Source of the DNA: an uncultured Chloroflexia bacterium
GTDB taxonomy: Bacteria > Chloroflexota > Limnocylindria > Limnocylindrales > CSP1-4
Direction: 5' to 3'
Assembly (NCBI GenBank): GCA_963752475.1
Contig: CAVVYR010000008.1
Coordinates: 574,110 to 638,109, forward strand
DNA: 64,000 bases
Every line of letters starts with the position of its first letter. The first letter of the stretch is position 1. Below the pieces are notes generated by a model. That model was not told the DNA's origin. It searched no databases and saw nothing but the letters and a program-made list of their open reading frames with translations. Shown piece after piece: positions 1,485 to 18,931 of the stretch. A program made the position numbers and the translations under genes.

Positions 1485-1522
1485 TCGCCAGGCGTACGAT
1501 GTCTGGTCGTCGCCGCCATGGC
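1485..1522 (+). repeat. Left terminal half site of the array (attL-like)
   Basis: TCGCCAGGCGTACG followed by the C-site right half ATGTCTGGTCGTCGCCGCCATGGC; the C-site left half is absent. Confidence 0.75.
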
Positions 1523-1553
1523 TGGGCGGCGCAGCCGAGGCGGCGCGCTGGGA

Positions 1554-2174
1554 CTAGTCAGCTGGTGGCCCGGTGGGCAACGGATACAGCTGGCGGCCCC
1601 CGGTCATGTCCGGGACCGGCTCGTCGGGGAACGACAGCATCTCGGCCTCGAAGATGTGGCCTTCGTATGCCAGGTCCCACGGGCCTTCCGCGTCCGCTGG
1701 GGTCACCCCGTGCAGCAGCGCATAGAGTCCCTCGTAGGCACCCTCACCGGCTAGGACGTAGAAGCTGTACCGCTTGCCGCCGCCGTTGACCCAGCGTCCG
1801 GTGCCACGCCAGCGCCCGTCCTCATCTTCCAGCAAGCTCCGGCTGACCGTGTTCATGGCGCCGTCGAGCACGTCCGACGGCTTCCAGATGAGCGTGTAGT
1901 CGAGCGTGAGCCAGAGGTCGTTCGGGAGTCGTGGGTCGCTCCACTCGACCACCTGGCGCATGAGAGCTGGCCGGCCCGTCCCGACCGTGATCTCATACCC
2001 CCGCACGTCGGAGGGGACGTTCGCTTCGCTGAAGCTGTGGCCGTACACCTCGACCACGGTGCCGGTGACGAACGTTACCGGGGCCGGCACTTCCTGTGCC
2101 GCTGCGGTGGTTGCCAATCCGAAGCACAGCGCCAGGCTACCGAGGAGCGTCAGCGAGGCTCGAGCTGCAGGCAT
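1554..2174 (-). CDS. Secreted 'WSDPRL' family protein (cassette 1)
   Basis: Signal peptide ending AAA-Q; motifs VTFVTGT, EWSDPRLP, GEGAYEGL, YEGHIF; ends PPAD*. Confidence 0.85.
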   Translation of the reverse strand: MPAARASLTLLGSLALCFGLATTAAAQEVPAPVTFVTGTVVEVYGHSFSEANVPSDVRGYEITVGTGRPALMRQVVEWSDPRLPNDLWLTLDYTLIWKPSDVLDGAMNTVSRSLLEDEDGRWRGTGRWVNGGGKRYSFYVLAGEGAYEGLYALLHGVTPADAEGPWDLAYEGHIFEAEMLSFPDEPVPDMTGGRQLYPLPTGPPAD

Positions 2175-2197
2175 TACGCACCTCCAAGTGCCCGCGC

Positions 2198-2270
2198 GCG
2201 GGCCGGGTCCGCCAGTGGCTTGACGCGGTCCAGGCGGCCATGGCTGGGGCCGCGCGTCATCGCCTCCCGC
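2198..2270 (-). ncRNA. c-di-GMP-II-like riboswitch variant (copy 1)
   Basis: Minus strand GCGGGAGGCGATGAC...TGGCCGCCTG...AAGCCACTGGCGGACCCGGCCCGC just upstream of the SD; GCGGG/CCCGC closing stem. Confidence 0.65.
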
Positions 2271-2323
2271 TAACTACGATTCTCTCTCGCGCGTCCATCA
2301 AGGCCGCCTGAGCAGCGTCCGAA

Positions 2324-2369
2324 ATCGCCATGTATAACGGGTCTCGGTCTGATCGTTGCCGCCATGGCG
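2324..2369 (+). repeat. C site
   Basis: ATCGCCATGTATAACGGGTCTCGGTCTGATCGTTGCCGCCATGGCG (divergent copy). Confidence 0.85.
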
Positions 2370-2592
2370 CAGGCAGCCGAGGTGACGATGGGCTAGTCCA
2401 TGGGGTCAGGCTCGGTGGTGACCGGAACCGGAGCCTCTGGGAACGCCAGCATGTCGCCCTCGAAGACGTAGCCCTCATAGGAGACATCGGTCGGGCTTGG
2501 CATCCGCACCCCCGGTCCCCAGGGCACGGCGTGCAATCCCTCGTAGGCACCTTCGCCGGTCAACTCGTAGAAGCTGTACTTGCCGTGGGAGC

Positions 2593-3768
2593 TAGTGCCT
2601 CATGCCGCAATGGCGGGGAGCGAATGATGGACCTCGGCCTTGATGCGCCAGGGCTTGGCTGGGCGGCAGTTCCGGTTGTGCCAGCGGAGGTAGGCATGGA
2701 TGGCCGCACCCTGCTCGTCGTGGCTGGCGTGGTCGCTGCCGTTGAGCGCGAAGCGCCGGAGGGCCTGGAACTGGCACTCGATGAGGTTGAGCCAGCTCGC
2801 GTAGGTGGGCAGGTACACGAGTTCGATGTCGTGCGCGTCGGCCCACTCGCGGAGCTCCTTCTTGAGATGCGGGCTGAAGTTGTCGAGCACCACGATGAGG
2901 TGCTCGTCGAAGCGGGCCCGCAGCGAGCGCAGCAGCTCGCGCACCTCGCGCCAGGTCTTGGTCGCCCGGATGTGGCCGTAGAGCTTGCCGCTCGCGGGAT
3001 CGTAGGCCGCGAGCAGCTGGCGCACGCCCGCGGTGCGCGTGTAGGTGGCCCGGAGGCGGGCCGGGTGCTTGCTCGGATGCCAGCCCGCTCCGAGGCGTGG
3101 CTGCAGGTTCAAGGGGCCGAACTCGTCGAGGCAGAGCACCCGGCTGCCCGCGGGCGGATGGGCGTAGAGGTCGAGCACGCGGTTCTTCTTGGCCTCGAAG
3201 TCCGGATCGGGCGAGGCCTTCGGGGTCTTGTGGTGCAGGAAGCGGATGCCATGCTCACGCAGGATGCGCCGGAGCTGGCTCCCGCTGATGGTCGGCACCA
3301 CTCGCGTCCGGAGCAGGTGGTCGCGCAGCTTGGTCAGACTCCAGTCGGTGAAGGGCTCACCGAGGTCTCGGGGACGGGCGAGAGCCACCTTCACGATGGC
3401 CGCGCGCTGGGCCTCATCGATCCGGCGTGGTCGGCCCCCGCCCTTCCGAGGGTCCAGGGCCGCGAAGCCCCGCTCGTCGAAGGCGTGGATGAGTTCGGCC
3501 ACGTGCGTCGCGCTGGCGCGGTGCAGCCGCGCGATCTCGGGCACGCTCTGGCCCTGGAACGAGGCGAAGAGGAGCATCGCCCGGTGCTGCGTGGTCGGGT
3601 TCGTACTGCGACGAGCGAGCCTGAGCAGGTGCATCGCCTCCCCATCGCTGAGCTCACGGATGAACAACTCGGGCCGGCGGGCCATCTGCACCTCCCTGCG
3701 ACGACGGGCCGAGGGTCGACCCTTGCGACAGTGCGATTACCTACCGGACATTATGAATCGAGGCACTA
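2593..3768 (-). mobile_element. IS630-family insertion sequence
   Basis: TA duplication (2593-94 and 3767-68) in a CTAG context; imperfect TIRs GTGCCTC...AATG / CATT...GAGGCAC. Confidence 0.9.
2600..3691 (-). CDS. IS630-family DDE transposase
   Basis: N-terminal HTH, GGGRPRRI, LCLDEFGP, VVLDNFSPH, LPTYASWLNLIE. Confidence 0.95.
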   Translation of the reverse strand: MQMARRPELFIRELSDGEAMHLLRLARRSTNPTTQHRAMLLFASFQGQSVPEIARLHRASATHVAELIHAFDERGFAALDPRKGGGRPRRIDEAQRAAIVKVALARPRDLGEPFTDWSLTKLRDHLLRTRVVPTISGSQLRRILREHGIRFLHHKTPKASPDPDFEAKKNRVLDLYAHPPAGSRVLCLDEFGPLNLQPRLGAGWHPSKHPARLRATYTRTAGVRQLLAAYDPASGKLYGHIRATKTWREVRELLRSLRARFDEHLIVVLDNFSPHLKKELREWADAHDIELVYLPTYASWLNLIECQFQALRRFALNGSDHASHDEQGAAIHAYLRWHNRNCRPAKPWRIKAEVHHSLPAIAA

Positions 3769-4194
3769 GCGATCAATCGCCCGGTGCCACTCCAACTCCC
3801 GACCTCATCCACCAACAGATGGTTGGTCGCGATGGTGGTCCATCCCCACTCGTCGGCAGGATGGGACACCGACTGGTGGTCCAGGGTGAACCAGTGCTCG
3901 GCGGGGAGTCGTGGGTCGCTCCACTCGACTCGCTGCTCGATGAGGTCCACCCGGCCGCCGCTGGTCACCTCGTAGTCCCCCACGATGGTCGGCGGGTCTG
4001 GCTCGATGTCCTCCCAGTCCCGTGCTTCGGTGTGCACCGTCATGTCCCATGGGAACCCGGTCACGAAGGTGATGGGGCCAGGTCCCTCTGACTGCGCAGC
4101 CGCCGTGATGAGCAGGCTGGCGAGCAGGACAAGAGCGGATGCCCCCGCCAGTACTGTCCGCAATGTACGCATCTCGCACCTCCTGGGTGCATGC

Positions 4195-4269
4195 GCGGGC
4201 CGGGTTCGCCAGTGGCTCGGCGCGACTCAGGCGGCCAACGTACGCGAGTCGGACTTCACGGCCTCCCGC
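4195..4269 (-). ncRNA. c-di-GMP-II-like riboswitch variant (copy 2)
   Basis: Same leader; inner stem CGACTC/GAGTCG is compensatory relative to other copies. Confidence 0.7.
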
Positions 4270-4310
4270 TACCGATGATTCTCTCGCGAGCGTCCATCGG
4301 CAATCCCGAA

Positions 4311-4355
4311 ATCGCCATGAATAGCGGGTTTGGTCTGGTCGTCGCCGCCATGGCA
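4311..4355 (+). repeat. C site
   Basis: ATCGCCATGAATAGCGGGTTTGGTCTGGTCGTCGCCGCCATGGCA. Confidence 0.9.
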
Positions 4356-4381
4356 CAGGCAACCGAGGCGGCCAGAAAGGG

Positions 4382-5263
4382 TTACTCGGCGGGCTTGGCC
4401 TCCGTCGTCCCGTCAACATCCGTCAGCGTGGCGCTCTCCACAACCGCAGGCTCGTCCGATGCGTTTCGGATCACATAGACCGTGTCGCCCGCGAATGAAC
4501 CCGACGTGAGAATGTCGGCATCGGGCGCGATGAACCTGACCGAGTCGGTCAGCGCCCCGTCGACCTCGGATGGGGCAGCGAAGCCGCTCTCCAAGCGACC
4601 CTCTTCAAGCGCCAGGAGGCGCAGCACCCCGGCTTCGTCAGAGTCAAGCACCAGCTGGCCGCCGGGATCGAACGTGATTCGTTCGAGGATGACCGCGACC
4701 GGGGCACTGATCAGCTCGGTCAGGGTCTCCTCGGCCGGGAAGTCCCAGACCAGCAACTGGTAGTCAGCACCCGGAGCAGGCTCCCTCGGTGTCTGCGGCT
4801 CAATGCTGTTGGCGATGCCCACGATGAACGATACGTACGGTTCCGTACCGTCGATCACCCACGAGCCCGAAGCCGCGCCGTCGTAGTACAGCACCACGTC
4901 ACCAGCACCGAGGGCGATGGTGGCCATCGGGTCCGGAGCTCCATCGGAGCCGTCCTCACCCCAGAGGTGTGCCCGCGTGTCCTTCACGACCTGCGCGCTC
5001 CCTTGCTCCACGTACTCGACGTAGGTGTAGCCCGCTGGTTCCTCCGACCCTTCCTCAGCGCTGCTGCTCGGCTCGACCATGACACGCGCGAACCACGTGT
5101 GATCGACATCCGGGGGTATGGCTTCCACAGGGATGACACCGCGGTCGCTCAGGACATCGACGTCGACGCCGGACGTACCTCCTTCTGCCGCGACCGCAGG
5201 CCCGAGACTGAGAACCAGCATCGTGAGAGCGGTGCCCGCGAGGCACTGACGTACGGTACGCAT
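4382..5263 (-). CDS. Secreted protein, probable tandem cupin-like domains (cassette 3)
   Basis: Signal peptide MRTVRQCLAG...; two beta-rich repeats (YVEQGS...LGAGD, ALEEGRL...IRNASDEPA); ends KPAE*. Confidence 0.75.
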   Translation of the reverse strand: MRTVRQCLAGTALTMLVLSLGPAVAAEGGTSGVDVDVLSDRGVIPVEAIPPDVDHTWFARVMVEPSSSAEEGSEEPAGYTYVEYVEQGSAQVVKDTRAHLWGEDGSDGAPDPMATIALGAGDVVLYYDGAASGSWVIDGTEPYVSFIVGIANSIEPQTPREPAPGADYQLLVWDFPAEETLTELISAPVAVILERITFDPGGQLVLDSDEAGVLRLLALEEGRLESGFAAPSEVDGALTDSVRFIAPDADILTSGSFAGDTVYVIRNASDEPAVVESATLTDVDGTTEAKPAE

Positions 5264-5280
5264 GGATCCCCCTTTCCAGC

Positions 5281-5353
5281 GCGGGCCGGGTTCGCCAGTG
5301 GCTCGGCGCGGCTCAGGCGGCCATGGTGTGGGCCGTGCGTCGTCGCCTCCCGC
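5281..5353 (-). ncRNA. c-di-GMP-II-like riboswitch variant (copy 3)
   Basis: Full leader copy upstream of SD AAGGGGG and ATG 5263. Confidence 0.7.
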
Positions 5354-5393
5354 TCAGTTGATTCTCTCGCGGGCGTCCAACGGTTCGCACGAA

Positions 5394-5438
5394 GTCGCCA
5401 TGAATAGCGGGTTATGTCTGGTCGTCGCCGCCATGGCG
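5394..5438 (+). repeat. C site
   Basis: GTCGCCATGAATAGCGGGTTATGTCTGGTCGTCGCCGCCATGGCG. Confidence 0.9.
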
Positions 5439-5474
5439 CCCGTGCGTCCGGCAGCCGAAGGCGGTGCGAGGGGG

Positions 5475-6026
5475 TTACTCGGCAGGCGGCAAGACCCACT
5501 CTGGTGGCTCGGGCCAAGCGCCGGGGATGATGACCCCCTCGACCTCCCAACCACCGGGAGCCGGACGCTGGATTAGCATGGCCGAGAGGCCCTCGTACCC
5601 ATGCTCACCGGTGAAGTAGTTCACGTAGTGGCTGACTCCGGTGCCCGGCGTGAAGCCCTGACCCGCCATGGTCCAGGAACCGCCGTCGTTCGTCAGGCGT
5701 CCGATGAGCGTGCGCACCGTGGCCCCGGAGCCGTAGACGTCATAGTTGGAGTTCGCCTCCAACTCTCCGCTCAACCGCGGGTCGTCGGTCTCCAGGCTCA
5801 ACGTCCAGCCGTAGTTCCGCGTGGACGCGACCATCGGCTGCGGCGAAGTCTCGGTCTGGGCGGACTGGTTCGGGGCGACGGCGCGGATGGTGCCGGTGAC
5901 GACGGCGGGCGCGAGAACATCGGCTTCCGAAGCCGGGTCAGCATCCCGCGCCACGCCGGTGACGCTCGACGGTCCGAGCAGCGCCAGGGCGACGGTCCCC
6001 ACCAAGGACAACCGCAACGTACGCAT
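5475..6026 (-). CDS. Secreted WSDPRL family protein (cassette 4)
   Basis: ATG 6026 MRTLRLSLVG after SD GGGGGA; ETDDPRLSG, GEHGYEGLSA, VEGVIIPG; ends PPAE*. Confidence 0.85.
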   Translation of the reverse strand: MRTLRLSLVGTVALALLGPSSVTGVARDADPASEADVLAPAVVTGTIRAVAPNQSAQTETSPQPMVASTRNYGWTLSLETDDPRLSGELEANSNYDVYGSGATVRTLIGRLTNDGGSWTMAGQGFTPGTGVSHYVNYFTGEHGYEGLSAMLIQRPAPGGWEVEGVIIPGAWPEPPEWVLPPAE

Positions 6027-6044
6027 GACATCCCCCGTTCGTGT

Positions 6045-6117
6045 GCGGGCCGGGTTCGCCAGTGGCTCGGCGCGGTCCAAGGCGGCCATTGCTGGACCGC
6101 GCTTCGAAGCCTCCCGC
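6045..6117 (-). ncRNA. c-di-GMP-II-like riboswitch variant (copy 4)
   Basis: Perfect 10-bp inner stem GCGCGGTCCA/TGGACCGCGC. Confidence 0.7.
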
Positions 6118-6167
6118 TATGTAGATTCTCTCGCCGACGTCCATCGGCTCCTCGGCCGTGCTCCAGA

Positions 6168-6212
6168 ATCGCCATGCATAGCGGGTCATGCCTGGTGGTC
6201 GCCGCCATGGCG
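6168..6212 (+). repeat. C site
   Basis: ATCGCCATGCATAGCGGGTCATGCCTGGTGGTCGCCGCCATGGCG. Confidence 0.85.
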
Positions 6213-6238
6213 CAGGCAGCTGGGGTGGGGGAATGGGG

Positions 6239-6838
6239 TCAGCCGAAGAAGACCGCGTCGATCAGCGCGAGCAGTGCGAACAGGGCGACGGGCAGCACCA
6301 CGATTCCCAGCGCGATCAGGATCAGGAGTTCTCGGTCCGGGCGGCGAATCCCCTTGCTGCGGCGTCGGATGATGCTCCCGACCCTGTCGCCGAAGGCGGC
6401 GCCGATCGAGACCGTCACGAGCGCAGCGACGATGCCGTCGGGGATGTCGTCCTCGGGAAAGCCGAGTCGGCCACCGATACCGGTACTGAGGGCGAATCCG
6501 ACGAGGGCTGCCGCCGCCATGGCGCCGATGAGACCGACCACACCGAGGCGTCGTCGTGGGGACGGCGAGTGCCCGATGATTCCCGCCGGGACGACCGCGA
6601 TGAGGATGCAGGCTGCCCAGAGGGTGATGGTCTCAGCAGACAGACCCCGGTAGCACCCCCAGCACTCCGGGTCGTCGTATCCGGGTTCGTAGAACTCCTG
6701 GATCATGTCCACCCACGCCGCTCCGAGCACGAGGCCGAGGACGAGGCAGAGTGCCGCTGCTACCGCGATGGCCGCGATGATTCGCCCGACGCCCGCAATC
6801 GGATCGACGCTGGTCCCACCCACGGGACGAGGTGCCAT
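6239..6838 (-). CDS. Multi-pass membrane protein (cassette 5)
   Basis: ATG 6838 with SD GGAGGGG; about 5 hydrophobic segments; CWGC in the first loop. Confidence 0.7.
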   Translation of the reverse strand: MAPRPVGGTSVDPIAGVGRIIAAIAVAAALCLVLGLVLGAAWVDMIQEFYEPGYDDPECWGCYRGLSAETITLWAACILIAVVPAGIIGHSPSPRRRLGVVGLIGAMAAAALVGFALSTGIGGRLGFPEDDIPDGIVAALVTVSIGAAFGDRVGSIIRRRSKGIRRPDRELLILIALGIVVLPVALFALLALIDAVFFG

Positions 6839-6981
6839 GTCTGTCGCCCCTCCATCCACCGATCCGCCAATCCCGATCGTCGCCGGTGTCAGCGTCGGGT
6901 CAAGCAAGGTGCAGCCGTGCTACGTCTCGTAGCCTCCCGCTACCTACAATTCTCTCGCGGGCGTCCATCAGCCGACCCTGA

Positions 6982-7026
6982 ATCGCCATGAATAGCGGGT
7001 TTGGTCTGGTCATCTCCGCCATGGCG
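6982..7026 (+). repeat. C site
   Basis: ATCGCCATGAATAGCGGGTTTGGTCTGGTCATCTCCGCCATGGCG; only the 5' part of the leader (6914-6970) accompanies it. Confidence 0.85.
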
Positions 7027-7209
7027 GTTGACCGCGCTTCGATACTTAGGCACAGAAACGGGGGCACCCGGGGCGATGAGACGCTTCCTGTCCCGACGGC
7101 CAGATCCAGAGCGTCGCTTCGTCGAGCTCCTCGAGCGCGCTCGCGTGATGACGGATCCTTCATGGCGCGACCACGCCACGTCCGACGAGCAGCTCGCGAT
7201 CAGGGCGCA

Positions 7210-7824
7210 CTAGCCGCCCAGCTGGTACCTGCCCCGCTCCAGCTCCTGGACGTCGGGGCAGAAGTCGCCGCCCTCCTGCCCTTCGGTGGAGGCGATGCCC
7301 ACGAAGTACAGATCGTCCGGGTCGCCCACCAGCTTGCGATCGACGGTCAGCGTCAGGATCGTTCCCTCGACCTCGACGTCGACGACGCCCCAGAACACCG
7401 GGTCGCCCTCGGTCAGCGTCGCGTCGAACAGCGGGGCACCGGACACGGCCTCCTGCTCGAGCGTGGCTCCATGGACGACGAGGACGTGGGTGATGTCATC
7501 GGGGAAGACCGCCGCCGGATCGGCCGACAGGCCGACCCACAGCTCATCCGTCGACATCGTCTCGACGTCATACGAGAGCGGTGGCTCCGCGGCGAACTCG
7601 AAGGTGAAGCTGACGAGGGATTGCCAGGGTTCAGCGATGCTGCAGGACAAGAAGTCGGGCCCTGCGCCGCCAGGGACGTCGCCGACGGGGTCCTCGTAAA
7701 CCGCCAGCGGGACGATCGGCGCGTCGGTCGGCTCCGGCTCGACCTCGGCGGCAGCCACCCCGGTCGCGCTCGCCAGCACGAGCGCAGCGGCGGCCGTCAG
7801 GATCCTCGATATCAGGGTCATCAT
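7210..7824 (-). CDS. Secreted acidic beta-rich protein (cassette 6)
   Basis: Signal peptide ...GVAAA; EDPVGDVPGG motif; two Cys. Confidence 0.8.
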   Translation of the reverse strand: MMTLISRILTAAAALVLASATGVAAAEVEPEPTDAPIVPLAVYEDPVGDVPGGAGPDFLSCSIAEPWQSLVSFTFEFAAEPPLSYDVETMSTDELWVGLSADPAAVFPDDITHVLVVHGATLEQEAVSGAPLFDATLTEGDPVFWGVVDVEVEGTILTLTVDRKLVGDPDDLYFVGIASTEGQEGGDFCPDVQELERGRYQLGG

Positions 7825-7838
7825 CCCCTCCTGTCACG

Positions 7839-7905
7839 TTCCGCAAGTGGCGTGGCGCGGTCTGGGGCGACCGTGGTCGACGGGCCGTGCGTCATCGCCT
7901 CCCGC
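7839..7905 (-). ncRNA. Degenerate copy of the riboswitch-like leader
   Basis: 5' half intact (GCGGGAGGCGATGACGCACGGCCC); 3' closing strand lost. Confidence 0.45.
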
Positions 7906-7956
7906 TACACCCAATTCTCTCGCGGGCGTCCATCAACCACCCTTGAACAGCACGGA

Positions 7957-8001
7957 ATCGCCATGAATAGCGGGTTTGGTCTGGTCGTCGCCGCCATGAC
8001 G
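7957..8001 (+). repeat. C site
   Basis: ATCGCCATGAATAGCGGGTTTGGTCTGGTCGTCGCCGCCATGACG. Confidence 0.9.
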
Positions 8002-8027
8002 CAGGCAGCCGAGGCGGCGCGCTGGGA

Positions 8028-8933
8028 CTACTGCTCCGGGTGAAGCTGGTAGTTGAGGAAGGCCTCGGTCAGCTCCCAGGTTGCCTGCTCCTGGAGGATC
8101 TGATCTTCGCCATGCCCGGTCGGCAACTCGGCGTAGACGTATTCGATGCCTGCGGCTCCGAGTGCATCAGCGAGGTTGCGAGATGCCTCGATGGACACCA
8201 CGCCGTCTAGGTTGCCATGGAGGACGAGCATGGGAACGGTGTCCTCATCGACGTGGAACATGGGCGAAGCCTCCTGAGCGATGGTCGGGTCGGCCTCGAT
8301 CTCAGCGACCGGGATCGCCTCGTGCCAGGCGTCCCGGAGCCACTCCGGCTCGGGGATGGTCAGGTCTACGTTGCCAGCAGTCGTGATGACGCACTGCACC
8401 CGGCTGGAGATGCCGGCCAGCTCTGGATCGGAGTCATCGACGGTGTCGAGGACGCCAAGCATGGCCGCGAGGTGTCCGCCGGATGAGTCGCCGACCGCGC
8501 AGACGCGGTCCGGGTCGACGTTGTACTCGTCCGCGTGGGCACGAACCCAGCGGACCACTCGTTGTGCGTCATGGAGCTGTGCCGGCCAGCGCACCTCGCC
8601 CGTGGCCTGGTCGAGCAGCCGATAGCCGGCGAGGAAGGTGACGTACGGCTCGCCGAACCCACTTCCAGCAGCCATGTCGCCGAACGGTGCCGCTCGTTCG
8701 GGCGTGATACCGACCTCGAGTGCGCCGCCGTGGAAGAAGATGAGCGCCGGGCGCGGCGCCTCGCGGGGTTCCGGCTGGTAGATGTGCGTGTACTGGCGCA
8801 GCGGATCCTCCCCGTACACGACGAACTCCTCGACCTTGGGCCAGGTGTCGTCCTGTGCGACGACAGCACCTCCCACGCCTGCGAGCAGCGCGAGGATTGC
8901 CGTCCCGACAAGACACAGCCTCAACGTACGCAT
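8028..8933 (-). CDS. Secreted alpha/beta hydrolase, HSL-family esterase (cassette 7)
   Basis: HGGA oxyanion motif, GDSSGGHLA nucleophile elbow, HGNLD, TGHG; signal peptide MRTLRLCLVG. Confidence 0.9.
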   Translation of the reverse strand: MRTLRLCLVGTAILALLAGVGGAVVAQDDTWPKVEEFVVYGEDPLRQYTHIYQPEPREAPRPALIFFHGGALEVGITPERAAPFGDMAAGSGFGEPYVTFLAGYRLLDQATGEVRWPAQLHDAQRVVRWVRAHADEYNVDPDRVCAVGDSSGGHLAAMLGVLDTVDDSDPELAGISSRVQCVITTAGNVDLTIPEPEWLRDAWHEAIPVAEIEADPTIAQEASPMFHVDEDTVPMLVLHGNLDGVVSIEASRNLADALGAAGIEYVYAELPTGHGEDQILQEQATWELTEAFLNYQLHPEQ

Positions 8934-8950
8934 GCCATCTCCCTTCGTCA

Positions 8951-9022
8951 GCGGGCCGGGTTCGCCAGTCGCTGGGCGTGGCCTTGCGACCAGTGCTGGG
9001 ACTGCGCGTCAGAGCCTCCCGC
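8951..9022 (-). ncRNA. c-di-GMP-II-like riboswitch variant (copy 5, diverged)
   Basis: Both ends conserved (GCGGGAGGC...ACTGGCGAACCCGGCCCGC); inner stem diverged. Confidence 0.55.
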
Positions 9023-9073
9023 TACGATCGGTTCTCGCGCGAGTGTCTATACGCTCCTCTGAGCGCTACCGGA

Positions 9074-9118
9074 ATCGCCATGTATAGCGGGTTTGGTCTG
9101 ATCGTCGCCGCCATGGCG
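9074..9118 (+). repeat. C site
   Basis: ATCGCCATGTATAGCGGGTTTGGTCTGATCGTCGCCGCCATGGCG. Confidence 0.9.
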
Positions 9119-9176
9119 CAGGCAGCCGAGGCGAGCCTTGACCGGCGGAGGACTATGGAGGCACGCAGTTCGGGGC

Positions 9177-10373
9177 ATGGCCATGGCGACGCTCGGCAGA
9201 CGGCTCGGAGTGACGACGCACGCAGTAGCCATGCCGATAGTCACAGTGGCGGTGAGCCTCGCGCTCGCACTCACCGTCGAAACGGGTCCGGCCGCGGGCG
9301 CCACAGGCAAGGCCTGCCGCAGGCGAAACACCGACTCGGGTCAGACCTACACGCGCCTCCAGGCCGCGGTCAACGTTGCGCAGCACGGCGACAAGCTCGC
9401 CGTTCGTGGCACCTGTGCCGGGCACACGGCCATCGGCAAGCGCTTGACCGTCGTCGGTGAGCGAACGAGGCGGTCCGGCGGGCCGCAGCTCAGCGGGCGC
9501 AACAAGGATCGGGTCTTGACCATCGCCAAGGGCGCGAGAGTGATGATTCGCGACTTGGTCGTCACTCAAGGTGACTCGAAGTGGGGCGGCGGCATCCAGA
9601 ACAACGGCGATCTCATCCTCACCAACGTCAAGGTCCGCGGGAACCGTTGCCAGCTCAAGGACGTGGCCCTCGGAAGGGCGGGTGGCATCCTCAACCGCGG
9701 CAGGCTCTGGCTCAACGGCGCGAGCCGGGTCCAGCGCAACTGGTGCGATGATGGAACTGCCGGCGTGTGGAACGCGAAGCCGGGCACCATCGTCCTCAAC
9801 GGCTCGAGCACGATCGCCTTCAACGGCGGCGTCTATGGCGGCGGTGTTGACAACGCCGGAACCATCATCATGAACGACAGGAGCGCCATCGCTCACAACA
9901 GCGCGGGTGAGAGCACCGGAGGGGTCGGGAACTCGGGCCGTTTCGTCATGCGTGACAGGAGCACCATCAAGGGCAATGGTTGCGGCGATCCCGACTACTG
10001 CGGCACAGGTGGGGTGTGGAACGGGCCGAAGGGCTCGTTCACGATGCTCGACCGCAGCTCGATCCGAGACAGCGAACCCGCTGGCGTGTACACCGCCGGC
10101 ACGTTCACGATGAAGGGCGCGAGCACGATATCCAACAACACGGGTTGGTACTGCGACCATGCGGGCGGCGTCCACGTCTCCGGCGGCCGCTTCTCCATGA
10201 CCGGCTCGAGTCGCATCACCGGCAACAAGCTCGATCCTGAGTACGCGCCCTGCGAGACTCGTGGAGCCGGCCTCTACCACAACGGCGGTACCATCCACGG
10301 CGTGCGCTGTGGCCCAGGGACGCCAGCCAACGTCTACGGCAACACACCCGACGACTGCTACTTCGCGGAGTAA
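9177..10373 (+). CDS. Secreted right-handed beta-helix repeat protein (cassette 8, inverted orientation)
   Basis: Repeated GGGIxN/GGVxN...I..N units; signal peptide; LQAAVN start motif; start codon uncertain. Confidence 0.8.
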   Translation: MAMATLGRRLGVTTHAVAMPIVTVAVSLALALTVETGPAAGATGKACRRRNTDSGQTYTRLQAAVNVAQHGDKLAVRGTCAGHTAIGKRLTVVGERTRRSGGPQLSGRNKDRVLTIAKGARVMIRDLVVTQGDSKWGGGIQNNGDLILTNVKVRGNRCQLKDVALGRAGGILNRGRLWLNGASRVQRNWCDDGTAGVWNAKPGTIVLNGSSTIAFNGGVYGGGVDNAGTIIMNDRSAIAHNSAGESTGGVGNSGRFVMRDRSTIKGNGCGDPDYCGTGGVWNGPKGSFTMLDRSSIRDSEPAGVYTAGTFTMKGASTISNNTGWYCDHAGGVHVSGGRFSMTGSSRITGNKLDPEYAPCETRGAGLYHNGGTIHGVRCGPGTPANVYGNTPDDCYFAE

Positions 10374-10401
10374 CGGGAGCCACGCAGCAGCCCCGCTCAG
10401 T

Positions 10402-10446
10402 ATCGCCATGAATAGCGGGTTTGGTCTGGTCGTCGCCGCCAGGGCG
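10402..10446 (+). repeat. C site (no leader, no D motif)
   Basis: ATCGCCATGAATAGCGGGTTTGGTCTGGTCGTCGCCGCCAGGGCG. Confidence 0.9.
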
Positions 10447-10585
10447 ACACGCTGTGGGCTAGCCCGTCCGCGCCTGGGTGACGCGGCTTCTTTCAGGCTT
10501 CGCGACTGGGCATGCACGCCAGTCGGATCCACACTGGGTGCGACTCGATCTCAGGTGTTCTAGGTGAGCGTCGACGCGAGCGCGC

Positions 10586-11413
10586 CTACGGTGGGGCGTT
10601 GCAGGGTGTGTCGCCAGCCAGGCGGCAGGGCATGAAGCTGAAGGGCCGCGTCTCCGAGACCGCAGTCCGTCGATGACCGTAGTGCGCGGTGACCCGCCAC
10701 CACCAGCCGGTGAGGTTGTGGTCAGCGATGAACGCGCGGCAGCCTCCGAAGCTGAACTCGGACCGAGTGAGTTCCGTGAACACAAGCGGCACGGAACCTT
10801 CGTGCCACACGCGAAGGTGGTAGGTGCCTCGGCCCTCGAGCTTCGGTCCACTCCAGTCGAAGTCAAGTTGGAACCCGTACCCCCGCGTCGGTTGTGCCGG
10901 GCACCCGATGGCCGGGTCGTTCTGGGCGATCTGCGCTCCCGGGGCAGGCGCGATGAGCTCGACGCGGGTGACCGGGATCTCGCAGCGCACCGACGAACCG
11001 ACACCCGGGCCCTGGCGGCACAAATCGACACCGACCCCACCGTCGAGCAGGTCGGTGAGGGCCCCGCCGAACAGGCGATCCGGCCCGACCCCACCGAACA
11101 GGCGGTCACGGCCGAGTCCGCCGTAGAGCCGGTCTCGACCACGGTTCCCGACGAGCCGGTCGAGACCCGGCCCACCGCAGATGATGTCGTTGCCACCGCG
11201 TCCAAGGACGATGTCGTCGCCACCGCGAGCGACGATGACGTCGGCCCGCTTCGTGCCCACGATGACGTCGGCCTTGTTGGTGCCCACGATCGTGGCTGGC
11301 TTGCCACCGCACTGGGGCTGGGCCTCGGCCGCATTCGTCACCAAAGCCACTGAGGCCAGCAGCCCCGCGGAAATGAGGAAGGCACCCGATCGGCGGAACG
11401 ATGCACCGGTCAT
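10586..11413 (-). CDS. Secreted protein with RTX/hemolysin-type Ca-binding repeats (cassette 9)
   Basis: C-x-G..ATIVGT start; multiple GGxGxDxL nonapeptides; C-terminal beta domain. Confidence 0.85.
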   Translation of the reverse strand: MTGASFRRSGAFLISAGLLASVALVTNAAEAQPQCGGKPATIVGTNKADVIVGTKRADVIVARGGDDIVLGRGGNDIICGGPGLDRLVGNRGRDRLYGGLGRDRLFGGVGPDRLFGGALTDLLDGGVGVDLCRQGPGVGSSVRCEIPVTRVELIAPAPGAQIAQNDPAIGCPAQPTRGYGFQLDFDWSGPKLEGRGTYHLRVWHEGSVPLVFTELTRSEFSFGGCRAFIADHNLTGWWWRVTAHYGHRRTAVSETRPFSFMPCRLAGDTPCNAPP

Positions 11414-11510
11414 CTCGCGATCCCCCTTCGTGCCGCGGGTCTGGCGTCATCGCCTCCCGCTACTGCTGATTCTCTCGCGGGCGTCCATCGTGTTCGAGCG
11501 CACTACCGGA

Positions 11511-11555
11511 ATCGCCATGTATAGAGGGTTTGGTCTGGTCGTCGCCGCCATGGCG
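11511..11555 (+). repeat. C site
   Basis: ATCGCCATGTATAGAGGGTTTGGTCTGGTCGTCGCCGCCATGGCG; the adjacent leader (11435-11460) is internally deleted. Confidence 0.9.
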
Positions 11556-11581
11556 CGGGCAGCCGAGGCGGCGCGATGGGG

Positions 11582-12133
11582 TTACTCGGCGGCGTCCGGC
11601 TCCGGGACCTCCGGCACCTCGCTCGGGAAGATGACGCCCTCGAGGCTCAAAGCGGAAGGTTGCAGCACATTGCCCGTTTCGAGGACAACCATCGCACTGA
11701 GTCCCTCATAGCCATCGCGGCCAGTGGGCGCCACCCATCGCACGGAACGTGGATCCCCGCGCAGATCGGTGAGGTAGCCATTGCCTTCACCCAGCCAACT
11801 GCCGCCGTCGTTGGTCAGCTCGTATGTGTGCGAGTCGATGGCGGTGTCGGAGCCGCCGTCCCAGTGCCAGGTGACGGTGCGCGTCACGGTGCCATTCAGA
11901 CGAGGGTCACTCGTGCTCCAGACGCCGGCGACCGCTCCGGTGTTGATCGCGCCTCCCATATCGAGGATGACGAAGTCCCCGCCTACCTCCCGGCGTTCCC
12001 CTCTCATCAAGGCGCTCCCGGTCACCTCAGCAGCCTCCATGTTCGGCTCGTCCTGTGCCGCGACTCCGACCACCGAGCCGGCGAACAGGCCGAGCGCGAG
12101 GATGGAGATGGTGGTGGTCCTGATCGCCCGCAT
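11582..12133 (-). CDS. Secreted WSDPRL family protein (cassette 10)
   Basis: MRAIRTTTISILAL...; WSTSDPRLNG, GRDGYEGLSA, LEGVIFP; ends DAAE*. Confidence 0.85.
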   Translation of the reverse strand: MRAIRTTTISILALGLFAGSVVGVAAQDEPNMEAAEVTGSALMRGERREVGGDFVILDMGGAINTGAVAGVWSTSDPRLNGTVTRTVTWHWDGGSDTAIDSHTYELTNDGGSWLGEGNGYLTDLRGDPRSVRWVAPTGRDGYEGLSAMVVLETGNVLQPSALSLEGVIFPSEVPEVPEPDAAE

Positions 12134-12265
12134 GGGCAGTCTCCCTGCCCCCCGTGGTGGACGCGTCAAACCAAGCCCCCTCGCGTCCTCACCACATAGA
12201 GGTCGCCAGACCCTCCAAGCGTTCCATCTTCTTGCGCCGCGGGCAGCCGAGGCGGCGCGATGGGG

Positions 12266-12799
12266 TTACTCGGCGAGCGGCACGGGCACTTCGGGCGCCG
12301 GTGGCGGTTCACCCTCGAAGATGACACCGTCGAACACGGTCTGGCCCTCCTCGACGACATGGGCCACGACACTCCAGCCGTCGTACGCACCCTCGCCTCG
12401 GAGCACACTGGTCACCGGCCAGGGGCGCTGGCGCCCGCTCGCGCGATACCAGGTGTTCGGCTCTTCCTGCCACGCTCCCTCGTCGTTCTCGACCCGCATC
12501 GTCCCGTTCCAGAGGTTGAACCCCCCGGGGTCCGAGTGCTGGTCCCGGTTCGCGGCCCACGTGTACGTGCCCGAGAAGCGCGGGTCGCTGGACTCGATGA
12601 CGACGCCCGTCTCGATGACACCTCGGTACTCGACCAAGTCGTCGCCGAAGACGAACGTTCCCGGCTCGACGACCGTGTCGACGGTGGCCCTGGCCTGGAA
12701 CTCGGTGACTGTCGGCTCCTCGGCTGTGGTCACTCCCGTTCCGACGACCGCCAGCATGAGCACAGACACCGCAGCCGCGAACGGCCTGATGGCGCGCAT
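12266..12799 (-). CDS. Secreted WSDPRL family protein (cassette 11)
   Basis: MRAIRPFAAAV...; ESSDPRFSG, GEGAYDGW, FDGVIFEG; ends PLAE*. Confidence 0.85.
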   Translation of the reverse strand: MRAIRPFAAAVSVLMLAVVGTGVTTAEEPTVTEFQARATVDTVVEPGTFVFGDDLVEYRGVIETGVVIESSDPRFSGTYTWAANRDQHSDPGGFNLWNGTMRVENDEGAWQEEPNTWYRASGRQRPWPVTSVLRGEGAYDGWSVVAHVVEEGQTVFDGVIFEGEPPPAPEVPVPLAE

Positions 12800-12815
12800 G
12801 ACATCCTCCTCATCC

Positions 12816-12889
12816 GCGGGCCGGGTTCGCCAGTGGCTCGGCGCGGTCCAGGCGGCCCTGGTGGTAGGCCGTGCGTCGCAGCCTCCCGC
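12816..12889 (-). ncRNA. c-di-GMP-II-like riboswitch variant (copy 6)
   Basis: Full leader copy upstream of SD GAGGAGG. Confidence 0.7.
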
Positions 12890-12945
12890 TAGGTCCATTG
12901 TCTCGCGGGTGTCCATGGGCAGGCAGCCGAGGCGGCGCGATGGGC

Positions 12946-13851
12946 TTACTGGAGGAGCTCCATCACGGTCTCGATCGTGAGGTCGCCCGGCGTGATGTGG
13001 CCACCGGCGAACTCCACCAGCTCGACGTCGTACCCGGCTTCGGCGAGCACGGCCTCGAACGCGGCTGAGTTCTCCGGCGATACTGTCGAGTCATCCTCCC
13101 CGTGGACCAGCCGTACCCGCAGCTCAGGATGCACCCCGACCGCGCCGTAGAGCATCTCCCACAGCTCGGGTTCATGCTCCATCAGGAGGTCGCGGCCGTA
13201 CCTGCCCTCGTAGCCCACGAAGGCGTCGTAGGCGCCCGCGACGCCCATGAAGCCATCGACACGGGTCGAGGCGTCGCTGGCCGTGCACTCGAACTGGGAT
13301 GGCGGACCACCTGCGGACTCGGCGTACTCGTCCCACACGCGGTCGAAGTCCTCTCCGACGAGCGCGACATGTGCCGGCGGTCCGCCATCCAGCGACCACC
13401 CGGTCAACACCAGCGGCGCCGTCTCGCTGCCGTACTCCGAGCCACGGGCGAAGCGCACGGCGCAGGCCACGGCCTCCACGGCCGCGCGGACGACCGTCGG
13501 GTCCGCATGGAGCACGACCTCCGACCACTGGAGCGGGGGCGAGCCGGTCACGAAGACGGACACACCCTGCTCGGCCAGTGCCTTCGAATTCACCGCCGAC
13601 CCGCCTACGCTGACGACCATGGGTGCATCCTCGCTCTCGGCAGTGACGTGGACACGGAGCTTCAGCTCGGTCCCCTCACCATCCGGTGAACTTCCCGTGG
13701 CGTAGACGAGGTCCTTGATGACCGAGACCTCGGCCGGAGAGTCCGATGTCGCACCAGCTGACTCGTCGCCGTCGGTCTGGGCAGCCACGCCGAGCGGCAG
13801 CATGGCCACCGCCACGGCCACCCCCGCCAACACTGCTCGCGGCGTTCGCAT
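12946..13851 (-). CDS. Secreted alpha/beta hydrolase (cassette 12)
   Basis: GWSLDG elbow, HGEDD, GGH; signal peptide MRTPRAVLAG. Confidence 0.85.
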   Translation of the reverse strand: MRTPRAVLAGVAVAVAMLPLGVAAQTDGDESAGATSDSPAEVSVIKDLVYATGSSPDGEGTELKLRVHVTAESEDAPMVVSVGGSAVNSKALAEQGVSVFVTGSPPLQWSEVVLHADPTVVRAAVEAVACAVRFARGSEYGSETAPLVLTGWSLDGGPPAHVALVGEDFDRVWDEYAESAGGPPSQFECTASDASTRVDGFMGVAGAYDAFVGYEGRYGRDLLMEHEPELWEMLYGAVGVHPELRVRLVHGEDDSTVSPENSAAFEAVLAEAGYDVELVEFAGGHITPGDLTIETVMELLQ

Positions 13852-13869
13852 GACACTCCCCCTTCATGT

Positions 13870-13944
13870 GCGGGCCGGGTTCGCCAGTGGCTCAGCGTGG
13901 TCCAGGCGGCCAACGTCGAGGAGCCGCGCGTCAGCGCCTCCCGC
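13870..13944 (-). ncRNA. c-di-GMP-II-like riboswitch variant (copy 7)
   Basis: Full leader copy. Confidence 0.7.
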
Positions 13945-13996
13945 TACTGATGATTCTCTCGCGTGCGTCCACCGGCTCGATGGGCACTCGTCCAGA

Positions 13997-14041
13997 ATCG
14001 CCATGAATAGCGGGTTATGTCTGGTGGTCGTCACCATGGCC
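13997..14041 (+). repeat. C site
   Basis: ATCGCCATGAATAGCGGGTTATGTCTGGTGGTCGTCACCATGGCC. Confidence 0.85.
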
Positions 14042-14123
14042 AATCACGCCGCCGGGCCGTCCGGCCCTTGACCCGCTGAGCGGGGCGCGGAGGATAGGGT
14101 CGCGAGCCAGGAGGGGGAACGTG

Positions 14124-15383
14124 ATGTCCAAGCGAGGCGGGGCCTTGGCGCCGACGCTGCCGCGGATTCTGCTGGCGCTCCTGGCCATGCCCCTGGCGCT
14201 CGCGGCGAGCGCGGGCGCGCCCCACGCCGCCGCTGAGCCCGTGGATGCGATGCCTACGATCACGCTTGTCGAGCAGCGTGTAATCAGAATCGCGGACAGT
14301 CAGTTGCTCTCGCTGTCGCCTGACGGTGGCTCGATCGTCGTCACCCGACCAGCTGGGCCGATGCCAACCGAGCTCTGTATCCACGAGGTGGCGACGCTCG
14401 CCGTGCGCATCTGCGCGGACGTCAGTGACCTCGATGCGGGCCTCTGGCCCGACAGCGTGGTCTGGTCACCCGACAGTGCGTGGCTGGCCTTCGCCGAGCT
14501 GTGGCCCATGTTCTTGGTCGATGGCGACCTGTGGCTCATGGACGCCTCCACTGGTGCGCTCGGCAACTTGCTCGACGATGGCTTCAGCGGCGCCCTGGGG
14601 GAAGCGGCTGCAGGCGAACTCACCTGGAAGGGCGTCATCACGCTGCCGATGTACCCGACGTTCACGCCTGACAGCGCCGCGGTGACGTTCTCGCGGACCA
14701 CGGTCCAGGCCGGCGAGTTCAGCGGTGTTGGGGACATCGCAACGCTCCCCATCACCGGTGGCGATGCGGTCACGCTGGGCGGTTCCGAACGCGAGGAGTT
14801 GGTCGGCGAGTATCGCACCATGCAGTGGGCAGCAGACGGATCCGCCCTCTATGTCTCCCTCGTCGACCAGCAGGCTTCAAGGCTCGGACCTGACAGCGGG
14901 ATCTGGGTGTTCGAGGCTGATGGAAGGCACGCCCGCCAACTCCTGAGCATCACTGGCCGCGACGACTGGCCGACGCGCATCTTGGCGGTGTCCCCGCGTG
15001 GGGAGCGCCTCCTCGTATCGGACCCGAGGGCGGCCGCGGGCGGCGCCCCGCTATGTGCTTGCTCGGTGGTCGATGGCTCGACCGGAGCCGCGGAGCCCAT
15101 CGAGCCGCTGGGATCGGAAGCCCGCCAGTCCACGCCCATCACCGGGGCGATGCTCTCGCCGGATGGGTCGCTGGTGATCACGGTCTCAGGCCATCTCGAG
15201 AAGCAGGTGGCCGTCCGGGAGGTGGCAACGTCGAACGAGACGGTCCTGCTACGGGAGCCGTCTGGGACCGCCCCATCGGACCTCGCGGGCGAGGTCCTGA
15301 CCTGGGCCCAGGACGACACGGTGCTGGTCGATGGAGCCAGACGCGGCCGCGGTACGCTGATCGTCCTCGACCGGGGAAGCTAG
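14124..15383 (+). CDS. Secreted TolB/WD40-like beta-propeller protein (cassette 13, inverted orientation)
   Basis: Repeated SPDG/WSPDS/FTPDS/WAADG blades; signal peptide; SD AGGAGGGGG. Confidence 0.85.
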   Translation: MSKRGGALAPTLPRILLALLAMPLALAASAGAPHAAAEPVDAMPTITLVEQRVIRIADSQLLSLSPDGGSIVVTRPAGPMPTELCIHEVATLAVRICADVSDLDAGLWPDSVVWSPDSAWLAFAELWPMFLVDGDLWLMDASTGALGNLLDDGFSGALGEAAAGELTWKGVITLPMYPTFTPDSAAVTFSRTTVQAGEFSGVGDIATLPITGGDAVTLGGSEREELVGEYRTMQWAADGSALYVSLVDQQASRLGPDSGIWVFEADGRHARQLLSITGRDDWPTRILAVSPRGERLLVSDPRAAAGGAPLCACSVVDGSTGAAEPIEPLGSEARQSTPITGAMLSPDGSLVITVSGHLEKQVAVREVATSNETVLLREPSGTAPSDLAGEVLTWAQDDTVLVDGARRGRGTLIVLDRGS

Positions 15384-15477
15384 GGCAGAGCCTGGCAGCG
15401 ACGTCGTCGGGGCCAAGCCTGCGACAAGCCGTGCGGCTGCCAAGAGGCGTCAAGCTCCGCCTAGACGGTCGTGTGGG

Positions 15478-15522
15478 ATCGCCATGAATAGCGGGTTTGG
15501 TTTGGTCGTCGCCGCCATGGCG
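15478..15522 (+). repeat. C site
   Basis: ATCGCCATGAATAGCGGGTTTGGTTTGGTCGTCGCCGCCATGGCG. Confidence 0.9.
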
Positions 15523-15551
15523 CAGGCCGCCGAGGCGAAGCGATGGGGCTG

Positions 15552-16751
15552 CTACTCGATGGCCGATGCAGCGTCCGGGGTGATCACGTAGGTCTCGATG
15601 CTGTCCCGGGCCAGGCCGAGCGTCTGGAGCTCGGTCCCATCTTCAAGGGTCACGACGTCCCCATCGGATGTGGATGCGGCCCTGACCCACACGTTGCCAT
15701 CAACGTCGATATCGATCTCCTGGACGCACCGGTCCGTCAGGAAGCGACGCCAGGTCGTGCCATCGAAGCGGCCGAGACCGTCGCAGGAGACCAGGTGCGA
15801 GCACATGACCCCGCAGGGCTGCTCGGTCTTGAAGGACGCCCACAGACTGCCATCCGGCCCCAGCACGCCAGGGTTCCACCACGCGGACGTCGTGCCACCG
15901 ACGGGTAGGGGCACCTCGAGTCGCTGCTTGTCGCCGTTCTCTTTCAAGGAGCGGATGACGATGCTCTCGCCGCCGAGCGCCAGGGTCCGGACTGCACCGT
16001 CGCTTCCGATGACGAAACCGTATCCTGGCAACCCTGCCACGGGCATCCAGCCATCGTCGGTGAGGCGGCTCACGGCCGTCTTCCGGCGCAGCCACAGCGC
16101 ACCGTCCGGGGCCACGTCCCACGACCTGATGTTGTTGGCCTTCGGCTTGTCCGCCGGGTGCTTGGGCAGGCGGGTCCAGGAGTCGCCTTCGAGACGCAGG
16201 AATCGACCGCCGCCCGGGCGATCGGTCTCCCTCAAGGCCCACACGGTGCCATCGGGTTGGAGGCGGAAGTCGAGACCCTCGTACACGTTGCCCGTGCGCT
16301 TGAGCCGCGGCCGCCAAGCGGTACCGTCATGCGAGTAGAGGGTCCAGCGGACGGGCCGGCCTTCCACGGTCCCGTCATGGGCGACGATCCACGGCGTGCC
16401 ATCCGATCCGACCTGGACCGGCCACGGGACGTTCTCCCGCGTCCGCCCGTCCGGGTAGGGAAGCTCCTGCTCTGCACCCAACTCGAGGAGATCCCGGTCC
16501 CCCATGAGCCACACGCTGCCATCAAGGCCGATGGCCAACTCATCGTTCAGGCCGCTCCTCCCGATCGATCCCGCAAGCTCTCGAACACCGCCCCCAAGGA
16601 CCCGTAGGACACCCGGTTCGACCTCCTCGGTCACCAGGCCCGCGAGCAGCCCGCCGGTACCGCTCTGGCCGCTGGCCTCTTGCCCCGCTGCGGCAGTGCT
16701 CGAGGTCAGGACCAAGGCAAGCGTCAACGCCGTCGCGATACGTGCACGCAT
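15552..16751 (-). CDS. Secreted beta-propeller repeat protein (cassette 14)
   Basis: MRARIATALTLAL signal; repeated xxDGxxW blades (GLDGSVW, APDGALW, GPDGSLW, FDGTTW). Confidence 0.85.
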   Translation of the reverse strand: MRARIATALTLALVLTSSTAAAGQEASGQSGTGGLLAGLVTEEVEPGVLRVLGGGVRELAGSIGRSGLNDELAIGLDGSVWLMGDRDLLELGAEQELPYPDGRTRENVPWPVQVGSDGTPWIVAHDGTVEGRPVRWTLYSHDGTAWRPRLKRTGNVYEGLDFRLQPDGTVWALRETDRPGGGRFLRLEGDSWTRLPKHPADKPKANNIRSWDVAPDGALWLRRKTAVSRLTDDGWMPVAGLPGYGFVIGSDGAVRTLALGGESIVIRSLKENGDKQRLEVPLPVGGTTSAWWNPGVLGPDGSLWASFKTEQPCGVMCSHLVSCDGLGRFDGTTWRRFLTDRCVQEIDIDVDGNVWVRAASTSDGDVVTLEDGTELQTLGLARDSIETYVITPDAASAIE

Positions 16752-16768
16752 GACGTCCCCTCTTGCAT

Positions 16769-16844
16769 GCGGGCCGGGTTCGCCAGTGGCTCGGCGCGGT
16801 CCAAGGCGGCCAACGTACACAGGCCGCGTCTCGTAGCCTCCCGC
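16769..16844 (-). ncRNA. c-di-GMP-II-like riboswitch variant (copy 8)
   Basis: Full leader copy. Confidence 0.65.
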
Positions 16845-16884
16845 TACCTACGATTCTCTCGTGGGCGTCGACCGCGATCACAGA

Positions 16885-16929
16885 TCCGCCATGAATGGCG
16901 GGTTTGGTCTGGTCGTCGCCGCCATGGCG
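16885..16929 (+). repeat. C site
   Basis: TCCGCCATGAATGGCGGGTTTGGTCTGGTCGTCGCCGCCATGGCG. Confidence 0.9.
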
Positions 16930-17053
16930 CCGGCAGGCGAAGCGGCGCATGGGAACCCCGCCCCCGGTCCTCCACGCCGGGGGCGGGGCCTACAGGGGGG
17001 TGCCTGGTTGACAAGTCCTGAGCGCCGCAGGCAGCCGAATCGGCGCGATGGGG

Positions 17054-17623: not shown

Positions 17624-17641
17624 GACATCCCCCTTCCTTCT

Positions 17642-18914: not shown

Positions 18915-18931
18915 GAGGTCCCCTCGCTTGA

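Follow-up and report, generated by a model that had tools for sequence, protein, structure and literature searches.

The 64,000-nucleotide stretch of DNA analysed here (the window), which comes from an uncultured bacterium of the Chloroflexota, contains at positions 1485–19104 what can be read, with about even confidence, as a lineage-specific cassette array that is integron-like but not an integron. Judged by their sequences, arrays of this kind are confined to one genus of uncultured Chloroflexota and hold unrelated genes, which appear to encode mostly secreted proteins. According to the preliminary description of this DNA, the two ends of the array are half-sites placed around an identical core, and this was borne out, with the shared segment trimmed from 16 to 14 bp. 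The 16-mer ATGTCTGGTCGTCGCC is found at 1499–1514 and again at 19078–19093, each time with only half of the repeat unit alongside. At the left end the non-repeat sequence ..TTCGCCAGGCGTACG stands before it and the right arm of the repeat GCCATGGC.. after it, and at the right end the order is the left arm of the repeat ..CACCATGAATAGCGGGTT, the 16-mer and the non-repeat sequence CCTGAGGG.. With up to three mismatches allowed, this 16-mer was registered 14 times in the window against 1.58 expected and a maximum of 5 in 100 shuffles; 12 of these 14 matches lie within 1499–19093 on a single strand, and the copies starting at 1499, 5414 and 19078 are exact. Since its first two bases (AT) differ among sites, the common core is the 14 bp GGCGACGACCAGAC (minus strand), located at 1501–1514 and 19080–19093. 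A public contig spans the left junction (1119–2621) with 0 differences, but it is likely to originate from the same sample and gives no independent support.

The entire site occupies about 46 bp and, read on the minus strand, where most genes of the array lie and which sets the orientation of the sites, is composed of the left arm GCCATGGC, the 14-bp core and the right arm nnAACCCGCTATTCATGGCGATT. In the logo of 78 sites with short left and internal right arms, collected from the window and its relatives, conservation is confined to these ~46 bp and peaks in the core, while the conserved block runs from GCCATGGC to GGCGATT and is bounded by GCCATGG and TCATGGC. The core is exact in 57 of the 102 sites found at 16 loci, and it joins two classes of left arms (short and long) with two classes of right arms (internal and terminal). 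In the window the 5′-most site has its core at 19080–19093 (minus strand), followed on the same strand by the internal right arm ATAACCCGCTATTCATGGTGATT (19057–19079); the array body with ~14 cassettes covers 1515–19079 (minus strand), and next to the core of the 3′-terminal site (1501–1514, minus strand) the plus strand continues with the short left arm GCCATGGC. Between the two ends further site 16-mers start at 2345, 4331, 5414, 6188, 7002, 7977, 9094, 10422, 11531, 14017, 15498 and 16905, those at 2345, 6188, 7002 and 14017 being degenerate. The site contains two direct CATGGCG repeats 30 bp apart, and its left arm of type A can pair with the start of the core; single-strand DNA folds calculated for five sites were not better than those of shuffled sequences (z from −0.2 to −1.7).

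Two other readings of the core were rejected. As a promoter with −35 and −10 elements it is unsuitable, because its TATTCA stretch has no −10-like conservation and the riboswitch genes have their own box elsewhere. The small plus-strand ORF that covers the site (MNSGF..) was discarded because wobble positions are not where variation is seen, and within the core no codon position varies at all. At 14017–14090 of the window (plus strand), as well as in the type B arms of its relatives, an ATG within CCATGAATAGC opens a short frame running through the core; in type B arms this frame opposite the site ends at the TGA of CCCTTGACCC after ~22 codons, and its variation is unlike coding constraint.

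The left end of the array has a right arm of its own, the terminal half-site at 1485–1500 (minus strand), which reads ATCGTACGCCTGGCGA. Together with the core it makes a near-palindrome GGCGACGAC-CAGAC-(A/G)TCGTACGCC, which can also be written as GGCGACGAC-CAGAC-GTCGTACGCC. A degenerate 27-mer composed of core and terminal half-site was found at 30 places in 15 of the 49 genomes of the genus and nowhere for the reversed control; a search of 185,579 species genomes for its exact form gave 15 stretches, all of this lineage. At 25 of the 30 terminal places the left arm is the short one or a close variant of it, and at the other 5 it is the long one. Beyond ~15 nt of the left flank, TCGCCAGGCGTACGA(T), sequences differ from locus to locus. 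Thus, the half-site TCGCCAGGCGTACG-core predicted earlier is real and recurrent, but the assumption that it represents ordinary host DNA did not survive: on the evidence of its copies, the left flank is a conserved half of a site, found in many chromosomal contexts. Some terminal places have a less regular structure. At one locus of genome G054 (L037, G054:C1:113284 onward) three tandem copies of the unit CGACCAGACGTCGTACGCGTGG, made up of part of the core and the terminal half-site, follow a terminal site, and at another locus (L043) the terminal half-site is directly followed by a partial core and the internal right arm.

At the right end the minus strand of positions 19094–19104 reads CATCCCTCAGG and is a candidate for the long left half-site. 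It has 7 of 11 bases in common with the CATGTAACAGG motif that precedes the core at sites combining terminal, core and long segments (term-core-long), and for random 11-mers of the window the probability of at least 7 matches out of 11 is 0.0048. Junctions in the form of an empty site, anticipated in the preliminary description, were indeed detected at six places: at five terminal places in the genus the core is preceded by the conserved CCATGTAACAGG or its variant, and the sixth is on a metagenome contig. One of these term-core-long junctions, in genome G051, belongs to the same methyltransferase-side locus as the left end of the window. Downstream of the right core there is a 128-bp spacer (19094–19221, no strand assigned), which starts with the inverted repeat CCTGAGG..CCTCAGG and is unique to the window genome, with matches in 0 of the 48 other genomes of the genus. 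It is followed by an internal fragment of an IS1182-like element (19222–20222, plus strand; Pfam DDE_Tnp_1), which corresponds to positions 494–1494 of the 1865-bp element, is truncated at both ends and is 99.6% identical to three other copies; full copies of 1865 bp are located at C8:308089–309953 and on contigs C21 and C4. The earlier reservation that the right arm might have been truncated by IS1182 therefore fails, since 19094 is not the terminal base of the IS and the fragment lies 128 bp away from the core. The missing right arm of the repeat was also searched for beyond the IS remnants and is not there. A second truncated IS fragment (20222–21190, plus strand), 96% identical to copies on C4 and C20, may be IS3-like, which is a guess; Pfam gave nothing. 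The two truncated fragments abut at 19222–21190, and full copies of both elements stand side by side at C4:162305–165345 of the window genome (G000).

A direct joint of positions 1514 and 19094 was not found in public contigs (Logan), and the joints between repeat sites listed there show neither excision nor its absence, because their sides are short and they come from related organisms. Among the related loci no clean empty site was found. At all four loci with enough upstream sequence for examining term-core-long sites (G051, G056, G022 and G013) a further site of the array type is present 1.8–2.8 kb upstream. Site-free relatives, represented by nine loci after gltD and by L161 and L162 before RpiB-like or methyltransferase genes, were rejected as clean empty sites, since the junction contains no core and is a point at which synteny is lost. 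The earlier scheme, in which circles integrate at a host attB site and then accrete in tandem, is supported in part: the geometry of the core and the empty-form junctions speak for it, and the nature of the left flank, half of a site rather than ordinary host DNA, does not.

Along the minus strand the unit of the array begins at the stop codon of the upstream gene and includes an ~35-nt arm CCCCATCGCGCCGCCTCGGCTGCCTGC, then GCCATGGC, the core, nnAACCCGCTATTCATGGCGATT and ~20 variable nucleotides, after which come the box TGGACGCCCGCGAGAGAATC, an aptamer of the c-di-GMP-II-GCG/GAG variant, a ribosome-binding site and ATG. From its place directly before the aptamers, the box looks like a dedicated promoter. 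Within positions 1–25000 Rfam models revealed 11 aptamers, all on the minus strand and all preceded by this box. Nine exceed the gathering score (RF03170/RF03169), and each of them is directly upstream of a minus-strand ORF (2192–2276, 4189–4275, 5275–5359, 6039–6123, 12810–12895, 13864–13950, 16763–16850, 17636–17721 and 18926–19012), while two are weaker and score below it (8945–9027 and 7842–7899). The whole genome has 35–36 aptamers of this variant, often clustered (C14, C32, C7, C31). The 26 copies inspected from outside the window array all have the box, and 25 of them do without the site, the exception being C29:239412; one can therefore conclude that the riboswitch leader is a part of individual gene modules and the ~46-bp block is a separate entity.

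Pfam assigned a BD-FAE esterase (8028–8933) and an RTX-repeat protein (10586–11413), whereas most other ORFs of the array belong to no Pfam family and many have a signal-peptide-like start. An ORF for a transposase with DDE_3 and HTH domains (2600–3691, minus strand; Pfam) is part of an IS that breaks one cassette gene. The cassette at 14033–15497 (plus strand) carries its gene (14121–15383) in the opposite direction and has the left arm of type B, GGGTCAAGGGCCGGACGGCCC.., and no riboswitch; nevertheless, the sites flanking it retain the orientation of the array. The same combination, absence of the riboswitch and the other left arm (GGGTCAAGGGCCGGACGGCCC..), is characteristic of reverse-oriented cassettes. 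At the 16 loci 101 of 102 sites are on the majority strand of their own locus, while the ORFs of the arrays are divided into 61 forward and 53 reverse ones. These 114 ORFs fall into 59 families, 43 of which are singletons. At two cassette junctions of the window (~12236–12297 and 12895–12950) the site is missing, and the type A arm that comes after the stop codon runs straight into the following promoter box, as though the ~75 bp separating two CATGG motifs had been lost by deletion or had never entered.

Comparison of related genomes revealed turnover of cassettes between preserved flanks. In a draw of relatives, a query combining the leader with the site matched 15 of 24 genomes of the same genus and 0 of 16 from the neighbouring family. 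At the methyltransferase-side locus, to which the left flank of the window also belongs (76% identity), the left flanks of G051 and G053 are 90% alike as far as 16 nt beyond the first core. Similarity returns at base one of the terminal core (94% over a 71-bp piece of the right flank, 96% over the 1527 bp of that flank), while all sequence between the shared flanks differs. Seven genomes have a flank in common at a second locus (84–93% identity) and part from one another at the core. A cassette can also recur in another array or at another position: G014 and G055 share one at 93% identity; a cassette 88.6% identical in G053:C7 and G022:C7 is the last in one array and the last but one in the other; and the segment 9110–10421 of the window is 83.5% identical to the terminal cassette of G005:C6. 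Differences in the cassettes of orthologous loci with breaks at the cores fit an exchange at the core. The core is the one segment shared by all four types of arms, so that exchange at or within it is the simplest account of these data. A 2.1-kb segment flanked by short-core-term and long-core-term sites, present in G013 and G051, has the arrangement that would be expected if a circle with a long-core-term site had entered a terminal site.

Not all rearrangements follow this pattern. Two recent, nearly identical duplications, in G014 and G054, arose through homologous recombination or conversion, as the limits of their shared tracts show. The tract common to the copies in G014 extends 37 and 24 nt past the two cores. 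In G054 the copies are 99.2% identical, including a rare variant of the core, up to the last core base, have 2 differences in the next 13 nt and are unrelated further on; this end of the tract counts in favour of exchange at the core, while the 5′ break is inside the riboswitch aptamer. In the pairs G014/G055 and G053/G022 the cassette body is more similar than the internal right arm in front of it, which does not fit a simple crossover at the core. Other arrays have ragged 5′ ends with no long half-site. Decay of sites with distance from the terminal end was observed in G021, but not in the window.

Taken together, an integron-like array that recombines at its core with the help of homologous recombination seems to us as probable as all other explanations combined. 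According to this model, site-specific recombination, its strand exchange taking place within the core or beside it, would swap, add and remove cassettes, and the two ends of the window array would be hybrids comparable to attL and attR. The recombinase acting on the core would be encoded elsewhere. Homologous recombination between conserved leaders and sites additionally reshuffles the cassettes, as the duplications in G014 and G054 show. A more specific version is only tentative and falls short of an even chance: this genus of Limnocylindria-like Chloroflexota may capture cassettes without an integron integrase, shuffling self-regulated modules with their own promoter and orphan riboswitch by means of the 14-bp core and an unrecognised recombinase, and dedicated terminal sites would be the places beside housekeeping genes where arrays are founded. 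The enzyme of such a platform could belong to a new family, or it could be a retargeted Xer pair or an RNA-guided recombinase of the IS110 type.

The search for this enzyme in the window genome, which is 88.8% complete, gave two full tyrosine recombinases. Both are of the XerC/XerD type and score 115–118 bits on the integron-integrase model TIGR02249 with its cut-off of 265. There was no tyrosine recombinase on contig C8, no serine recombinase or Y1 transposase (RAYT) in the genome, and no recombinase among the ORFs flanking the window array and related arrays in the Pfam scan. The Xer pair is present in 49 of 49 genomes, with or without sites, and several site-bearing genomes have tyrosine recombinases of the Xer type only. 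The only ATAA-N6-TTAT motif of the window genome, found with the dif consensus, is at C7:606485–606518 (L240, ..CTTCCGATAATGTAAGTTATGTAACA..) and is likely, from this match, to be the chromosomal dif site; it is AT-rich, and the core GGCGACGACCAGAC shares nothing with it. The IS110 family occurs in 13 of 15 site-bearing and in 19 of 34 other genomes, and this difference was rejected as a correlation with the sites because it does not discriminate. One IS110-family element with a DEDD transposase (L011:14772–16012, G013:C9) is located within an array precisely inside the right arm of a site, where it is flanked by CCCGCT and ATTCATGG and has GATCT at either junction; the site is thus able to serve as an IS target. 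Other IS110-family genes lie at most ~4 kb from arrays on G022:C7, G054:C1 and G022:C4. The most widespread family of array genes (14 members in 9 genomes; those members that were scanned match nothing in Pfam) is missing from the window array, and a recombinase encoded by the cassettes was accordingly discarded. A phage or plasmid carrier was rejected as well: the single viral match had no arms and was taken as chance, and there was no plasmid match.

The main rival, which we regard as rather unlikely, attributes to the 46-bp site a regulatory or structural role, such as that of an operator, insulator or terminator-like element between co-regulated genes of secreted proteins. Arrays would then arise by duplication, divergence and homologous recombination, and the end forms would be mere variants. 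It is compatible with the demonstrable movement of pieces by homologous recombination and the failure to find a recombinase, as well as with the two direct CATGGCG repeats and the possible pairing of the type A arm with the core start; in addition, the same genome has riboswitch-led arrays without the site. Against it stand the uniform orientation of the sites (101 of 102), although the genes themselves are oriented 61 to 53, and the lack of relationship among the genes, whose 114 ORFs make up 59 families. The fact that 25 of the 26 riboswitch genes inspected from outside the window array do without the site also argues against it, as do the single-strand folds, which do not surpass shuffles. 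Finally, it leaves unexplained why a conserved terminal half-site and a long one take the place of the arms precisely where the core begins and ends.

It is improbable, in our estimation, that the whole array is cargo of a larger mobile element, with the terminal half-site as the end of this element and insertion by the 3′ ends of housekeeping genes. Terminal sites are indeed located 13–20 nt from the stop codons of convergent gltD-like and RpiB-like genes, in G013 there are 22 kb inserted after gltD in comparison with nine relatives without a site there, and the three tandem core/term units of G054:C1, with their 22-nt period, are reminiscent of the multiple binding sites of transposon ends. 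At the same time neither a transposase nor any other conserved gene goes along with the arrays, a second end to match the terminal one was not found, and the contents turn over between relatives with fixed flanks. Equally poor chances are given to a miniature mobile or REP-like element with short CCATGG-type ends, inserted many times between gene modules and leaving partial copies at the array ends. In its favour are the small size of the site, its place between genes, its restriction to the lineage and its borders GCCATGG and TCATGGC, as well as its absence from two junctions of the array (~12236 and 12916) and the IS110-family element precisely inside one copy, but outside arrays the window genome has only three more sites (two on C19 and one on C29) and that at the C8 contig end, each array keeps one orientation, no Y1/RAYT transposase was found, and partial copies would not give two conserved alternative half-sites.

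The preferred reading, a cassette array recombining at its core, invites comparison with known systems. Among systems that store single-gene cassettes and reshuffle them, integrons are the only one well understood to date. They rely on one integrase family and on folded attC sites. Xer-dependent integrative elements (IMEX) at dif, a type of site with two Xer-binding arms on either side of a 6-bp spacer, and pdif modules of Acinetobacter plasmids are another kind of system, in which modules are accreted in tandem by host recombinases with genes elsewhere. Arrays of the window type resemble the latter in tandem accretion at a short core site, with one complete site kept at one end, but the core and arms are unlike the dif-like site of the genome, there are several arrays per chromosome, and their sites are all direct, whereas pdif modules alternate. 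With known clusters of c-di-GMP-II-GAG/GCG riboswitches (RF03169/RF03170) they have in common the forward cassettes made of box, aptamer, ribosome-binding site and gene of a secreted protein, and differ by the addition of the 46-bp site, reverse cassettes without riboswitch and dedicated end forms, features missing from the remaining riboswitch clusters of the window genome. As integrons and CALINs are defined in the literature, the latter are clusters of attC sites lacking an integron integrase (PMC4889954). Directly repeated sites separating unrelated cassettes, by which such arrays are recognised, are present here. The likeness extends to the predominance of unknown, unrelated ORFs between directly oriented, species-specific sites, to hybrid end sites, to several arrays per genome with no integrase nearby and to IS in the arrays. 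There are also differences. No IntI was found in the window genome, and the site, with its short, double-stranded-looking core and near-palindromic terminal form, does not look like an attC, whose R″/L″ and L′/R′ boxes fold as an imperfect hairpin. By eye, no RYYYAAC...GTTRRRY pair was seen in the window sites, only single likenesses of 6 out of 7. Many cassettes have their own promoter-like box and riboswitch, and instead of adjoining an integrase gene the special site occupies the end that is distal to the forward genes. A search of the literature on integrons, gene cassettes, recombination sites, attC or CALIN in Limnocylindr- taxa or Chloroflexi, with supplementary files outside its scope, brought up no paper that describes the site.

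If the preferred reading is true, a second, unrelated type of site with the same function in an uncultured but abundant lineage of soil and sediment would mean that cassette platforms arose more than once; it would also point to an unknown recombinase and offer a defined 14-bp/46-bp site for it. The array also ties an orphan riboswitch (c-di-GMP-II GAG/GCG variants) to a large and variable set of secreted proteins, which may help to find its ligand.

The other end of the window repeats the motif of its beginning. A second terminal half-site (63973–63988), together with the first 12 bases of the core (63989–64000), occupies positions 63973–64000 of the minus strand, where the contig ends, and by its composition is the presumable start of another array or a single site. 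Since the contig ends within this terminal site, assembly probably broke at a repeat and a second array may follow. The site is 410 nt past a gltD-like gene, and in G013 a term-core-long site is found 13 nt past the stop codon of the same gene.
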